Positions 44,201 to 50,200 of a stretch of DNA of 64,000 bases are shown here, in pieces; position 1 is the first letter of the stretch, and every line of letters starts with the position of its first letter. The position numbers are program-made. The DNA is from an uncultured Verrucomicrobiae bacterium. GTDB taxonomy: Bacteria; Verrucomicrobiota; Verrucomicrobiia; Chthoniobacterales; UBA10450. The stretch spans positions 64,001 through 128,000 of the forward strand of contig CAWFGO010000003.1 of assembly GCA_963815455.1 (NCBI GenBank), written 5' to 3'.

Positions 44201-47200
44201 GGTTGCGAAAACCCTGGTCACGCTCAGCCAAACCCGTTTGGTTACCATCGCTGCTGTTCACGGCGCGGCTGTTGCCGGGGGCGCCGGTATCATGTCGGCA
44301 TGCGATTACGTAGTCGCCGCCAATGGGACGAAGATTGGCTATCCCGAGGTGCGTCGCGGCTTGGTGGCCGGTTTGGTGATGACGTTTCTCCGTCGCCAGG
44401 TGCGGGAACGGGACATTCGCGAATTGTTGCTCGGTGCTGAATTAATCGATGCCGAACGGGCGCGAGAGCTTGGCCTGGTGAATCGTGTCGTCGCACGTGA
44501 TGAACTAATGGGCGAGGCGCAAAAATTTGCCGATTCGGTATTGCAAGGCGCTCCCGAAGCAGTGACCCAGACGAAAAAACTGATCGAAGAGCTCTGGTCC
44601 AGCCCGGTGAAGAAAGATGTCGATCTTGCGTTGAAATATCACATGCAAGCGCGGGAATCGGACGAAGCGACCGAAGGCATCGCTGCCTTCAACGAAAAGC
44701 GCAAGCCGAATTGGACGGTGTAGGGGAAGCTGACAGCTTCCCGGGTGTGTGATCTGGGGAAGCTGTCAGCTTCCCCCTACAGAAACCGAATTAAACACAT
44801 CGATGACATTTAGAGATCGTTGGCGCCCGCAGATCGGATGGCGCATTCCGGCCGCGTGGTTGACGCTCTGTGTTGTTTGGAGTTCGACCTGGCTCGCCAT
44901 CAAGGTGGGATTGCGCGATTTGCCACCGATCTCCTATGCCGGAATCCGCTTCCTGATCGCAATCGCTGTCTTGGTCGCCGTCTCGGTTGGTCGCGTCCGA
45001 TTATTCCCCTCGCGGCGCTCCGATTACGGGCCGCTTGCTGTCACAGGCATTCTCATGTTTGGCGTGAACTACGGATTGCTGTTTTGGGGCGAACTCCATG
45101 TTTCGTCCGGGCTGGCGGCGGTGCTTCAGGCGACCATCCCAATCTTCGGCATGGTGTTTGCCCATTGGATGCTTCCCGCGGAACCGATCCGGCTCCGGAA
45201 GTTCGCCGGCTCGCTTATTGCGCTCGGAGGCGTAGCCATGATTTGCGCGCGGCTTTTGAGTTTCAGCGGGGTAATGGCGTTCTGGGGCGCGCTGGGCATT
45301 GTGGCCGGGGCGGCGGGCGCGGCGTTCTCCAACGTGGTCCTCAAACGCCGTGCAATTCAGTTGGCCCCGAGCATGATCGCGGCCTGGCAAATGATTTTCG
45401 GCGCGCTGCCCTTGCTCGCGATCGGTTTTGCCTGGGAAGGAAATCCGCTTCGCTTCCACTGGAGCTCGATGTCGATCTTCTGTTTGCTTTACCTCGCCAT
45501 CATCGGTTCGGCACTTACCTTTCTCCTTCTCTACTGGCTGCTGCCTCGAATGACGGTAACAAATTTACAAACCATCGCTCTCATTACGCCGCCGGGCGCC
45601 GTCATGCTCGGTTGGTTGATCGGCGGCGAACAATTTCCGCTCTGGTCGTTGTTCGGCGCCGGTCTCGTGCTGGTCGGTGTGTGGATGATCTTTCGAAGGA
45701 CGAAAACATCCAGGCGAGCGGAGCCAGAACCCGGAACCGCCGTCGCCGTGCCGCGCGCCTAGGATTTTGACGCGACCGCGCGTTTTTCGGCAGTCGGAAT
45801 TGTAAAGCTCTCGATTTCTTTGCGGATCTCGTTGGCGAAACTGGCCGCGCCGGCGCCGTTGACCACGCGATGATCGAACGTGAGTGAAAGAGTGATCACC
45901 TCGGCCGTTTCGTTCTTCTTCCCGTTTGGGATCAATTCGCGGTGCGCGGTACCCACGAACAATGTGCCTACCGACGGCGGCACCACGATCGGCGCGCCCG
46001 CCTTTACGCCGAACGCGCCAAGGCTGGTGATCACGACCGGCGCATTCATTGCCGCAACGTTTCCCGCGCGGGTGGCCTCAATCGTTTCATTGTAGATCTT
46101 CATGAACTCTGGCCAGCTTTTTTGGTTCGCATCGACAATCACCGCCGTGGCCAATCGATCGCCTTCGAGCGCGACCGCAATGCCGAGATCGAAGTTTTCA
46201 TTTTCGACAATGCGATCGTCCTCAAGAATCAAGCGCCGGAACGGCGCGTGTTTTTCCATCGCCCGCAAAACCGACCAGGCAATCATAACGCTCGGGGACG
46301 CCGCATTTTTTCCATTTTTCTTTTTCGCCGATTCGCGCGCCCTACGAATGGCATCCCAGCGCGCGTCGATCTGCAGATTGGCCGGAATCACGCGGCTGAG
46401 TTTCCGCGTGATCGTGGGCGAAAGCGCCGGCTCGGTGTAGTGGCGCGTGTCCTCACGCGCAGGCTCCGCTGCCTTGCGGCTGGGCACAGCCGCCCCTACA
46501 ACATCCGAGGAAGTTTCCCCAGTCAAAATCGTCCCCAGCTCTTGGCCGATCTCGACGGTGTCGCCCACCTTCGTTTTCCACTCTCCCATCACGCCAGCGA
46601 ACGAGGACTGAATTGGATAAACCGCCTTGTCCGTCTCGACTTCGCATAAATCATCATCCAACGCGACCGGATCGCCCGGCTTCTTCGAGAGCGAAACGAT
46701 TTTCGCGCTGCGAATTCCTTCGCCCATGATTGGCACGGTGATCGGTTGTGTGCCGGCTGTAGCCGAGGGCGTTGACCTCGGCTGAGAAAGCGCTGCTTCA
46801 CGGATCGGTCCGCCGGGGTCAACGACCGCGGCTACAATTGTGCGCTCACTTTTTGTCGCAACCGAACGCCGGATTGCCGCGACGATGCGCTCCACATCCG
46901 GCAGCGCCGCGTATTCATAAATCGGATTGTATCCGATCATGACATTTCCCTTACTCACTAAAATCGGCGGACTGACCATCGTGTTCCAGAGCTCGGGATT
47001 ACTGGCGAGATGAGAAATAATCATTTGCCCGACGCTGCATTGTTCGGTGTCTTCTTGAACAACAACGAGCCGGCCAGTCTTTCGAACAGATTCTTCGATT
47101 GTCGCATGGTCCCATGGGATGATTGAGCGCAAGTCGATTAACTCGACGCTCGCTTCATTGTCGATCTTCGCCACCGCTTCGAGCGATTTTTCGACCGTGT

Positions 47201-50200
47201 TTCCCCAGGCGACCAGCGTTACATCGGTGCCTTCACTGAATTTCCGGGCCTGGCCGAAAGGCACGGCGCGGATTGCTTCTGCAGAGTCGCGTTCCGCCCA
47301 AAGCATGTGTTTTGGAATGAGAAAAATAACCGGATCCTCGCTGTGCATCGCCGTCCAAAGCAATCCAGCGGCGTCCTCCGGCGTGCTCGGAATCACGACG
47401 GAAAGTCCCGGGTAATGAGCCAGCGCCGATTCGTTAGCCTGGCTGTGCCACAAACTGCCGCCGGGCAAATACGCCCCGTAGGGCGCGTAAATCACCGCCG
47501 GACACGTCCAGTTACCAAACGACCGCCAGCGCAAGATCGAAATGTTGGTTACCAGCTGATTAAACCCCGGGTAGATGAAGTCGATAAATTGCACTTCGAA
47601 CACCGGCCGCTTGCCGTAGGAGGCTAGACCACAGGCCACTCCCAGGATGGTCGATTCCGCCAGCGGCGAATTGAAAACCTGCCTGGGAAATTCGGTCGAA
47701 AGTTTTTGGGTGAGGCGAAACACACCGCCCTTCGGATCTTCAACATCTTCGCCACAAATGATGCGGCGCGGATCTTCTTCGAGTCCCGCTCGCAACGTCT
47801 TGTTCACGGTGTCGCCCATCCGATATTTTCCCGCCGGCAGGATTTCCGTTGTAGCCGCGGGCGTCGACCGCGGCATAGTGACTTCATCAAAAAGCTCCTT
47901 AGCCGAAGGATCCTCTGCTTTTTCCGCCTCGCGGTATTCTTGGCGAACGCGCTCCTTTATTTCGTTGTCGATCCTGGCGAATTCCTCCGCGGTAATCGCG
48001 TTTTCCGCGATGAGGTGATCTCTCCAGCACGTTAGCGGATCGAATTTTTCGAGCGCGGCGATTTCCTCGGCACTACGATAAAGCTTGTGATCATCCGTGC
48101 TGGTGTGACTGGAAAGCCGCTCCATTTTGATCCAGAAAAAGAACGGCCCGCTTCCGGCTCGAATCTTTTCGAACGCTTCCGCCGTCGCGTCATGGACCTC
48201 CTGGACATCGTTGCCATTGACCCGCCGCCAATTACTGGTCGCAAGAATATCGAGCGCGAGCGGATTGTTCTCACGGGTCGGCATGCTGATGCCGTAGGCG
48301 TTATCTTCAACCAGAAAAAGCATTGGAAGTTTTTTCTCTTTGGCAAAACAGATCGCCTCGAAAAAATCGCCCTGACGCGTCGCCGCGTCGCCGATCGTGG
48401 TCACGACCAGATTTTGTTTGCCATCCAGTTGAATTCCCCAGGCGATGCCGCAAGCGGGAAGAAGCTGCGAGCCGGTCGGCGTCGGCACGCTCCAGATGTT
48501 CAATTTTCGGTGACTATAATGCGACGGCATCTGCCGGCCGCCGCTTCCCGTGTCGCGCTTGGCAAAATATTCCAGTCCCAGTTCGCGCGTCGTCATCCCG
48601 CGACCGAGGACAAGACCGCGATCGCGATAATAGGAAACGATGTAATCATCCGGCTCCATCTGCATCGACACCGCCGCCAGGGCTTCGTGGCCCATACCCG
48701 ACACATGGAAATGTCCTTTCCCCTGACGATTCAGATTTTGCTCGCGCAGATCGGCATGGCGGCTCTCCAGAATCGTTCGGAGAAGGCGAAGCTTGGTTTC
48801 CTGGTTTAGCGAAGCCATACGATGTCGATCTTATGAATAGGTCCGGCGCTGCCGGATTGCTAAAGGAAAAAGATTCGGGCACGCTTTGCAAAGCCTTTTC
48901 CGCATGATGACGATCTTAGAGCTGAGCCGGGGAGACAGGGAATATTCTGCGTGCGACCGGATTTTAGTTTAGAATCGCGCCGATCAATATGCGGCTGGTT
49001 GTTCAAAAATATGGCGGGACCTCGGTGGGGGATGCGGAACGGATTCGCAATGTCGCGCGGCGTTTGATTGAGACCCAGCGGGAGGGTTGCCGGGTGGTGG
49101 CGATTGTTTCGGCAATGGCCGGTGTGACAGATGAGCTGATCAAACTCTCGCAGGAGATGTCGATGGAGCCGGCCGAGCGCGAGCTCGACGTTTTGCTGGC
49201 CACCGGCGAGCGGGCATCGAGCGCGCTGACTGCCATGGCGGTGAATGCGCTCGGTGGCCGGGCCGTTTCGCTCTCCGGCGCGGACGCGGGCATCCTTACC
49301 GATGGAATGCATACGAAGGCGAGGATTGCCAACATCAGCCCGAAGCAGATCCTGCAACTGCTCGAAGACGATTACATCGTGATTGTGGCCGGTTTCCAGG
49401 GACAGACTGTCGAAGGTGAAACGACGACGCTCGGGCGTGGCGGTTCGGACCTAACCGCAATCGCGCTGGCCAGCGCTTTGAACGCCGATGCCTGCCAGAT
49501 TTTCACCGATGTCGATGGTGTTTTCACCTGCGATCCGCGGATCGTGACCGAGGCAAAGAAGGTAGATGAGATCGCTTATGACGAGCTGCTCGAAATGGCC
49601 GGCAGCGGGGCGAAAGTGATGCAATCGCGCGCGGTAGAGTTCGCGAAAAAATTCGGCGTCGAATTCGAAGTACGATCGAGTTTCAAAGCGGGTGGGGGAA
49701 CCATCGCAAGAGAAGAAACCCCAAGCATGGAGGACGTCGTGATTCGCGGGATCAGCCTGGCCCGGAACCAGGCGAAACTGACGATCGCATCGATCCCGGA
49801 CAAACCGGGCATCGCCGGGCGGATTTTTTCCGATGTCGCCGCGGCGCATATCGTGGTGGACATGATCGTCCAAAACGCATCGATCAGCGGCACAACCGAT
49901 ATTTCATTCACAATTCACGAAGACGATCTGGAAGACGCTCGCAAGATCTTGATGCCAATCGTAAGTGAAATCGGCGGGACCCGATTGAACACCGCCAGCG
50001 CGGCCGCCAAGCTGAGCGTCGTGGGCATCGGAATGCGGTCGCACTCGGGCGTGGCGGCGCGAATGTTCGAATGCCTGGGCAAAGGCGGGATCAACATTCA
50101 GCTGGTCTCAACATCCGAGATCAAAATCGCGGTCATCATCGACGAGAAAGACGCCGAACGCGCCGCTCAGCTAATTCACGCCGAGTTTGGTCTGGCGAAA

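Follow-up and report, generated by a model that had tools for sequence, protein, structure and literature searches.

In canonical pyruvate dehydrogenase (PDH) and branched-chain 2-oxoacid dehydrogenase (BCKDH) complexes, E1 and E2 are separate polypeptides, and E2 carries a peripheral-subunit-binding domain and builds a 24- or 60-mer core through its C-terminal 3-10 helix; BCKDH consists of an alpha2beta2 E1, E2b and E3. A single chain that holds the catalytic domains of both E1 and E2 is known from actinobacterial OdhA/KGD (an E2o-E1o fusion; PDB 8p5r, 8p5s), where dimeric E1 and trimeric E2 form a D3 hexamer of ~800 kDa and E3 acts in trans. OdhA has the order E2–E1, a homodimeric E1o, 2-oxoglutarate as substrate and direct domain contacts. 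It lacks a lipoyl domain, which E2p supplies. Work on OdhA has raised the questions of how lipoyl arms serve several active sites and whether channelling needs a big core and a tethered E3. The trimeric actinobacterial E2p (AceF/DlaT) has lost the canonical trimer–trimer helix. It exists as a protein of its own and retains a docking domain, and a conserved Phe follows its last helix within a three-residue insertion. Outside central metabolism, QncN/QncL serve in natural-product loading with a PDH-like fused E1alpha-beta and a lipoyl-E2; there, the ACP is loaded from a ketose by two separate proteins.

The window (the whole stretch of DNA that was analysed, 64,000 nucleotides) contains a gene in which E1-alpha, E1-beta, a lipoyl domain and an E2 domain form a single ORF without internal stop (Table 1). 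Pfam placed E1_dh at residues 19–305, Transket_pyr at 334–505, Transketolase_C at 522–612, Biotin_lipoyl at 692–764 and 2-oxoacid_dh at 810–1005, and gave no E3_binding match at E ≤0.1. The motifs ETDKA (728–732) and DHRVVNG (982–988) were both found in the translation. This is exactly the layout given in a preliminary description of the locus. In the AlphaFold model, four domains are joined by two disordered linkers (657–687 and 768–803). Our best reading, with a probability of about 0.65, is a working branched-chain 2-oxoacid dehydrogenase with E1 and E2 in one chain.

Table 1. The fused gene, its domains and its neighbours in the window
Feature	Position	Strand	Remarks
Acyl-CoA carboxyltransferase, MCC-beta-like (3-methylcrotonyl-CoA carboxylase; inferred label, no equivalog passed)	42304..43935	+	co-distributed partner
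Enoyl-CoA hydratase, methylglutaconyl-CoA hydratase-like (inferred)	43962..44723	+	recurrent neighbour
EamA transporter	44749..45762	+	convergent; stop overlaps by 4 bases; neighbour in 1/80 loci
Fused enzyme gene, E1alpha-E1beta-lipoyl-E2	45759..48818	-	1019 aa, 111.9 kDa
E2 acyltransferase domain, aa 797-1008	45795..46430	-	R828, T931, H983, N987
E2 C-terminal end	within 45795..46430	-	E-x-F-x-(I/L)-P where trimer–trimer helix expected
Flexible linker 2, aa 768-796	46431..46517	-	no peripheral-subunit-binding domain
Lipoyl domain, aa 691-767	46518..46748	-	PF00364; lipoyl-lysine K731 at 46626-46628
Flexible linker 1, aa 653-690	46749..46862	-	unconserved; pLDDT <50 at 657-687
E1-beta domain, aa 330-652	46863..47831	-	E388, F411, F414, H458
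E1-alpha domain, aa 1-315	47874..48818	-	ThDP/Mg motif G143-D144...N173, catalytic H238
E1-alpha pocket of branched-chain type	within 47874..48818	-	F37, Y64, M97, H100
Aspartate kinase	48989..50239	+	divergent; neighbour in 41/80 loci, probably lineage synteny

With BCKDH (Thermus E1 1um9, human 1dtw), the protein shares the E1 fold, ThDP motif, pocket and catalytic residues, and likewise the lipoyl domain, the E2 fold and the catalytic triad. It differs in joining three proteins in one chain, in the absence of a peripheral-subunit-binding domain, in the replaced trimer–trimer helix and in having no E3 gene nearby. Unlike OdhA, the protein has the order E1–lipoyl–E2, an alpha/beta-type E1, long disordered linkers and its lipoyl arm in cis. 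OdhA/KGD is thus a precedent for an all-in-one E1–E2; the novelty lies in combining a lipoyl domain in cis with an E1 of the alpha/beta type. The chemistry itself is ordinary. No publication on a single-chain E1alpha-E1beta-lipoyl-E2 was found in the literature covered, mainly outside subscription journals.

Given frameshifts at other places in the assembly, such as its OGDH genes, the chain could be a false fusion, or degenerate and inactive. We regard this as highly implausible and already largely refuted, since independent homologues with a single ORF number in the hundreds, the catalytic residues do not vary and the chain is under purifying selection. The domain layout, within one ORF, is shared by 120/120 best homologues, and all 27 loci extracted from whole genomes are single ORFs with identical domain order, which rules out an assembly artefact.

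Residue conservation was counted over 236 full-length fusions. In E1, Y64, R65, G143, N173, H100, H238 and E388 are invariant (236/236), H458 is found in 235 and position 144 is D or E throughout. K731 is kept in 236, H983 in 233, N987 in 232 and R828 in 231. Hence, the ThDP/Mg motif and His of E1-alpha and the Glu and His of E1-beta, as needed in an alpha2beta2-type E1, are present. The lipoyl domain matches PF00364 and carries K731 as putative lipoylation site, and LipA is encoded in the genome. The E2 domain has an acyltransferase fold with Ser/Thr, His and Asp/Asn. Thr931/His983/Asn987 align with Ser558/His610/Asn614 of A. vinelandii, so the Asn in DHRxxNG appears to be a working variant. 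R828 aligns with Arg450, the CoA 3'-phosphate residue, in a region (R825/R828) where hand alignments are ambiguous by one helical turn. The E2 domain superimposes on 3l60 (Z 26.0, rmsd 2.6, 215 residues aligned) and is only ~20% identical to solved E2s.

The dN/dS ratio (13 pairs) was 0.05–0.08 in all four domains versus 0.37–0.63 in the linkers, with 39% identity and a dN/dS of 0.63 for linker 1. All four domains are under purifying selection. Together with the near-invariant catalytic residues, this supports an intact enzyme whose activity is predicted from sequence.

The closest solved structure for both E1 halves was the Thermus branched-chain E1, 1um9 (TM 0.94 to 1um9_B). The F/YYRD/GRQMPxH pocket is common to these two E1s and absent from PDH. 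F37, Y64, M97 and H100 align with F66, Y95, M128 and H131 of the Thermus E1, which we take to be its hydrophobic substrate pocket (positions checked on the alignment). Among the 236 fusions, F37 is kept in 234, Y64 and H100 in 236 and M97 in 207 (Leu in another 28). The branched-chain type is supported by this pocket, by the E1 tree and by the co-occurrence with a carboxyltransferase described below; the predicted substrates are branched-chain 2-oxoacids.

The enzyme may instead be active on different or broader 2-oxoacids (pyruvate, 2-oxobutyrate, aromatic acids). No NCBIfam equivalog cut-off was reached by the protein: it scored 208 vs 411 bits for TIGR03181 and 161 vs 394 bits for TIGR03182 (both PDH), and 52 bits vs a cut-off of 878 for the OdhA/KGD model NF008907. 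In addition, pocket position 36 and M97 vary among subfamilies, and substrate assignment from motifs is indirect. However, a separate PDH of the genome passes its equivalog cut-offs, and both motifs and tree set the fused E1 apart from PDH-type E1. We therefore consider other 2-oxoacids very improbable.

The preliminary description gave no E3_binding match and no recognisable docking domain. The missing Pfam match as proof of loss was rejected, as Pfam overlooks the docking domain of split relatives too and the missing match alone proves nothing. The domain of the split relatives is divergent: it is scarcely seen by a profile built on conventional docking domains (0.7–7.3 bits), and therefore a clade-specific profile was built. 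It matched in 12/12 split relatives vs 1/239 fused proteins (238/239 without a match). Neither profile found a docking domain in the protein studied here, and its linker is disordered and unconserved. The loss itself was thus upheld. Since split relatives keep the domain and fused ones lose it, the proposal that covalent fusion replaces E1 docking is supported at the sequence level. Two candidate weak unfused members in the order (G235 and G273) turned out to be E2s of the conventional kind that carry a docking domain.

A megadalton E2 oligomer displaying E1, part of the boldest reading in the earlier proposal, is not supported. The C-terminal, cube-forming trimer–trimer helix motif is replaced in the fused E2, and the AlphaFold model has no 3-10 helix after the last E2 helix. 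By this model, and by analogy, a small OdhA-like oligomer is likelier than a megadalton core. F1005 is kept in 226/236 fusions. By analogy, it may correspond to the Phe of AceF/DlaT; it lies 1–2 residues earlier, without the insertion. With the trimer–trimer helix gone, the smallest closed assembly would, as in OdhA, be a hexamer, here of ~670 kDa and made of three E1 dimers and two E2 trimers.

In the branched-chain dehydrogenase that we propose, the E1 parts of two chains would pair as the usual alpha2beta2. On ThDP, E1 would decarboxylate 2-oxoisocaproate, 2-oxoisovalerate or 2-oxo-3-methylvalerate and then acylate the lipoyl group on K731. Held by a flexible linker on either side, the lipoyl domain would swing to the E2 site, where E2 domains, as the usual trimer, would form the branched acyl-CoA. 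The covalent linker would hold E1 in place of the lost docking domain. No E3 gene was found in the 138 loci examined, and the genome encodes one E3. We infer that it acts untethered, reoxidising the arm through transient contact.

Both the carboxylase and the hydratase gene reported as neighbours are present. They are not co-operonic with the fusion because they lie on the opposite strand, beyond the EamA gene. Aspartate kinase and EamA were rejected as functional partners (synteny or chance; Table 1). A promoter/terminator scan at the locus stayed at chance level. Recurring neighbours of the fusion are CoA-dependent enzymes; FadB-like genes were found in 19/138 loci and isobutyryl-CoA-mutase-like genes in 8/138. 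The fusion and a close carboxyltransferase orthologue mark the same 13/91 genomes of the order, and within family f7 the identical 6/15, counts that rest on few lineages. This pairing with an MCC-beta-like gene points to leucine/valine breakdown here.

The genome (90% complete) encodes class IV aminotransferases, an HMG-CoA-lyase-like gene and, as described before, conventional complexes elsewhere: the PDH, a second split E1/E2 set and a frameshifted OGDH. Parts of the leucine route are missing from the genes identified, because none of the three acyl-CoA dehydrogenases is a clear isovaleryl-CoA dehydrogenase and there is a single biotin carboxylase. At its 90% completeness the genome yielded no ilvC, which is not taken as proof of auxotrophy. 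A search of the genome for AtuA carries no information, as its controls were silent as well. On sequence grounds, the fusion probably breaks down leucine-type amino acids, and acyl-CoA in this lineage would mainly enter leucine/valine breakdown.

The same chemistry could have a chiefly anabolic role, in which FabH would receive isobutyryl, isovaleryl and 2-methylbutyryl primers for the branched-chain fatty acids of the membrane. Acyl-CoA dehydrogenase is absent in 16/27 carriers (98–100% complete), which points to primer supply in those, and the close carboxyltransferase is missing in 19/27. The E1 clade includes 39/150 representatives in which FabH stands where E2 would be, and split relatives adjoin RpfF-like genes in 6/22 loci. 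Of 62 genomes of the class, 53 have the fusion or the other, split E1 type, and 47 of these have one only. Verrucomicrobia also make iso/anteiso fatty acids. On the other hand, the second split E1/E2 set of this genome could provide primers, the fusion tracks the catabolic carboxyltransferase in the order (13/13 genomes), and a stand-alone FabH lies near the gene in just 1/138 loci. As the chief role, we consider primer supply unlikely, while giving it some weight. It is compatible with a branched-chain dehydrogenase, probably holds in family f6 and its neighbours, and in other carriers the acyl-CoA would probably go to fatty-acid priming.

In the E2 tree, all fused E2 domains form one clade separate from conventional E2s (support 100/99), with changes such as TAV for VPV. 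Same-clade E2 domains are fused to ACP (P0131, L198) or to ACP-KS modules of PKS/NRPS (P0275). These features would fit an E2 that acylates the phosphopantetheine of an ACP, not CoA, so that the protein would be a starter-unit loading module; the joining of relatives to ACP and PKS domains recalls QncN/QncL. However, in the three members fused to ACP the Arg for the CoA 3'-phosphate is missing (N, A and N in its place), whereas the fusion subfamily keeps it (231/236), and the fusion, unlike QncN/QncL, sits among CoA-catabolic genes. An ACP acceptor thus seems very unlikely.

In clade relatives, FabH, a thioesterase, E2-ACP or E2-ACP-KS (PKS) replaces E2, and in the E1 tree (FastTree) E2-type rows occur at several points. 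Tentatively, and with the odds somewhat against it, E1alpha-beta-lipoyl may be a portable chassis that generates acyl groups for interchangeable acceptor domains (E2, FabH, thioesterase, E2-ACP, E2-ACP-KS). The E2 version would be self-contained and core-less: the two-fold E1 and three-fold E2 valencies would lead to a hexamer, a cage or a network in which the sites stand at a fixed 1:1:1 ratio and E3 diffuses freely. If true, these complexes would be assembled here on a principle not described so far, in bacteria that are among the most abundant in soil.

Because one gene supplies E1, lipoyl arm and E2 in a fixed ratio, and natural split relatives have the docking domain, questions of channelling become directly testable. 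The fusion would be a compact natural model of substrate hand-over in 2-oxoacid dehydrogenase complexes and could serve as a one-gene source of branched acyl-CoA. The family is widespread and far bigger than the about ten clusters first estimated: there are at least 540 pattern-matched relatives in GTDB genomes (best 80 examined), and the fusion is present in 26/66 sampled genomes of the class. Databases label the homologues merely as E1 component or ThDP enzyme, and the annotation is hereby corrected for abundant soil Chthoniobacterales. Carriers are common soil and aquatic Verrucomicrobia. Among the sequencing runs listed, no RNA run carried the gene, and four soil DNA runs of one study matched at a share of 0.09–0.11.

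The fusion is a real and conserved variant of a known complex. Its five Pfam domains lie where the preliminary description had placed them, and together with the open frame they bear out its claim that E1-alpha, E1-beta, lipoyl and E2 parts form one uninterrupted chain. Pfam found no E3_binding match in the protein. The AlphaFold model (13 sequences) had a mean pLDDT of 78.4 and showed four folded parts, with disordered stretches at 657–687 and 768–803. Modelled alone, the E2 part reached a pLDDT of 84.7 and matched solved E2 cores with Z 23–26 over ~215 residues. The chemistry would be ordinary; the architecture is unusual and testable.

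Features of the window and of related loci (L, loci; C, contigs; G000, source genome)
Feature	Position	Strand	Remarks
Fusion gene	window 45759-48818	(-)	single open frame, 1019 aa
Carboxyltransferase	window 42304-43935	(+)	3-methylcrotonyl-CoA carboxylase beta-like by inference
Enoyl-CoA hydratase	window 43962-44723	(+)	
100-aa ORF	window 41937-42239		no Pfam match; adjoins the carboxyltransferase in 12 loci
Second split E1/E2 set	L157:3496-8250 (G000 C1:149495-154249)		distinct pocket motif GRDGNIHRG
OGDH E1 and E2 genes	L159 (G000 C5:48880-52823)		several frames in this assembly
Lysine 6-transaminase set	L165:6011-10747 (G000 C1)		beside aldehyde-dehydrogenase-like and glutaryl-CoA-dehydrogenase-like genes; adjoins FadB/FadE-like genes; read as lysine catabolic cluster
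Different fusion (genome G117)	L046:7233-10388		~270 N-terminal residues without assignment, then E1alpha-beta and C-terminal lipoyl; no E2
Rpf-like clusters with split genes	L182:6385-14111; L197:4075-11473		
E1-lipoyl module fusion	L198:536-2185		

The same domain order was found in all 120 best homologues (of 5074 matches; 74–100% identity), and a single-ORF fusion in 27 of 201 genomes of the phylum, the source genome included. Hence, the fusion is not an assembly artefact, as had been argued from the shared architecture. It was present in 26 of 66 further genomes sampled from the class, in 13 of 91 genomes of the order (in one, G285, spread over two contigs) and in 9/9 of the source family. 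Among the best 80 of at least 540 pattern-matched GTDB relatives, the record titles name Verrucomicrobiota for 79 (Chthoniobacterales, Ca. Udaeobacter, Opitutaceae); the remaining one reads 'bacterium'. Passages of 10.1101/053942 count Ca. Udaeobacter among the most abundant bacteria of soil and describe it as lacking branched-chain amino-acid synthesis.

E1-E2 fusions are known from OdhA/KGD, but these have no lipoyl domain and another E1 type. No report of the E1alpha-E1beta-lipoyl-E2 layout was found in searches of the open literature. The parts seen of PMC9328018 and 10.1101/2025.09.03.673897 mention a branched-chain dehydrogenase and no fusion.

A metagenome scan with a distant family member as query gave 22 loci: 7 fused, 12 split into an E1alpha-beta and a lipoyl-E2 gene, and 3 with only E1 in view. 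The split E2s group in the same E2 clade as the fused ones (support 100/99) and carry a divergent docking domain missed by Pfam. A profile built from five of them matched 12/12 split members (five training rows, three near-copies and, as new matches, L179, L180, L184 and L198) and 0/7 fused metagenome loci. Only one of 239 fused proteins matched (P0131, 21 bits). The distance from lipoyl-Lys to DHR was 251 in the source fusion (median 264 in fusions), 281–325 in split members and 328–390 in conventional E2s. These sequences favour the earlier proposal that covalent fusion of E1 to E2 stands in place of docking. No E3 gene was found in 138 loci and the source genome has one E3, so E3 would have to work in trans. 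The glycine-cleavage H protein is an example of a lipoyl carrier that E3 serves without a tether.

Catalytic residues were surveyed in 236 distinct full-length fusions (950–1500 aa, mostly Chthoniobacterales), some differing in start call alone and 30 remaining at <70% identity. The lipoyl-lysine K731 and E1 residues H44, Y64, R65, H100, G143, N173, R234, H238, E388 and F411 were each kept in 236/236, and H458 in 235. For E2, the counts were 233 for D982/H983, 232 for N987 and 231 for R828; each of the 30 representatives carries Thr or Ser at position 931. T931, H983 and N987 align with Ser558, His610 and Asn614 of A. vinelandii E2, the catalytic triad named in PDB titles. R828 shares a column with Arg450, which binds the CoA 3'-phosphate according to a passage of 10.1101/2020.07.24.212647; pairwise alignments put R825, one turn off, in its place. 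In 13 close pairs, whose dS was close to saturating, dN/dS was 0.05–0.08 in the four domains versus 0.37–0.63 in the linkers. For family f6 fusions (L008–L027), Glu in place of Asp in the ThDP-binding GD motif (26/236 fusions) and, in many, Trp in DHRW were noted.

The best solved match for each E1 half was the Thermus branched-chain E1 (1um9). Its F66, Y95, M128 and H131, reportedly named as pocket residues by Nakai in 2004, align with F37, Y64, M97 and H100. PDH-type E1s, the source genome's own among them, have other pocket motifs and form a separate branch. No NCBIfam model reached its cut-off against the fusion.

For assembly, E2 cubes and dodecahedra need a C-terminal 3-10 helix, according to part of PMC8740704. 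Most conventional E2s aligned end in a motif of E/A-x-P-x-x-L type. The fusions have E-x-F-x-L/I-P, often 20–21 residues past the NG motif, and the model of the E2 part showed no helix there. With dimeric E1 joined to trimeric E2, the simplest closed form would be a hexamer of 671 kDa. OdhA, built likewise, closes as a hexamer (as described in part of PMC10415282), and by analogy this may be the assembly of the fusion; the flexible linkers would also allow cages or networks.

For a role in leucine catabolism, at which the preliminary description had hinted through the neighbouring genes, there is evidence on both sides. A close carboxyltransferase orthologue (≥70%) occurred in the same 13/91 order genomes as the fusion, and in family f7 in 6/6 carriers versus 0/9 non-carriers; carboxyltransferase or hydratase lay near the fusion in 25/80 loci, FadB-like genes in 19/138 and isobutyryl-CoA-mutase-like genes in 8/138, with about three lineages behind these counts. 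Three further order genomes had a carboxyltransferase homologue at 43–48% and no fusion. No acyl-CoA dehydrogenase was found in 16/27 carriers (79 of 201 sampled genomes given) and no close carboxyltransferase in 19/27, which argues against a purely catabolic role. In the source genome, no clear isovaleryl-CoA dehydrogenase and no more than one biotin carboxylase were found. It does encode LipA, two class IV aminotransferases and, scoring under its cut-off, an HMG-CoA-lyase-like protein. Our reading is that the fusion is catabolic in the source lineage and supplies primers in other carriers.

The best 150 representatives at 50% identity included 13 E1a-E1b-lipoyl-E2 and 39 E1a-E1b-lipoyl-FabH proteins; single ones end in thioesterase, E2-ACP or E2-ACP-KS-NRPS. 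Their E1s form one well-supported clade (100, FastTree). The CoA Arg is absent from the three ACP-fused E2s and likewise from several unfused E2s. FabH fusions without an E2 domain (L029–L043) were seen in 15 fetched genomes from other classes of the phylum, in representatives P0151, P0161 and 37 more, and in Anthocerotibacter panamensis. Fused to ACP, PKS/NRPS, FabH-KR-ACP or thioesterase (P0275/P0227, P0131, P0192, P0207 and the L198 module), the E1-lipoyl module is apparently a loading unit.

RpfF-like genes (below the RpfF equivalog cut-off) stood beside split members in 6/22 loci. RpfG/RpfC/RpfF-like signalling clusters hold split E1alpha-beta and lipoyl-PSBD-E2 genes (L182, L186, L188, L197), one also with FabZ; these sets may be a source of branched primers for DSF-type signals. 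In the survey of the 201 genomes, the GRDGNIHRG-type split set is the sole E1 match in genomes of genus g9, and its distribution is largely complementary to that of the fusion. The OGDH frame breaks are probably due to sequencing indels.
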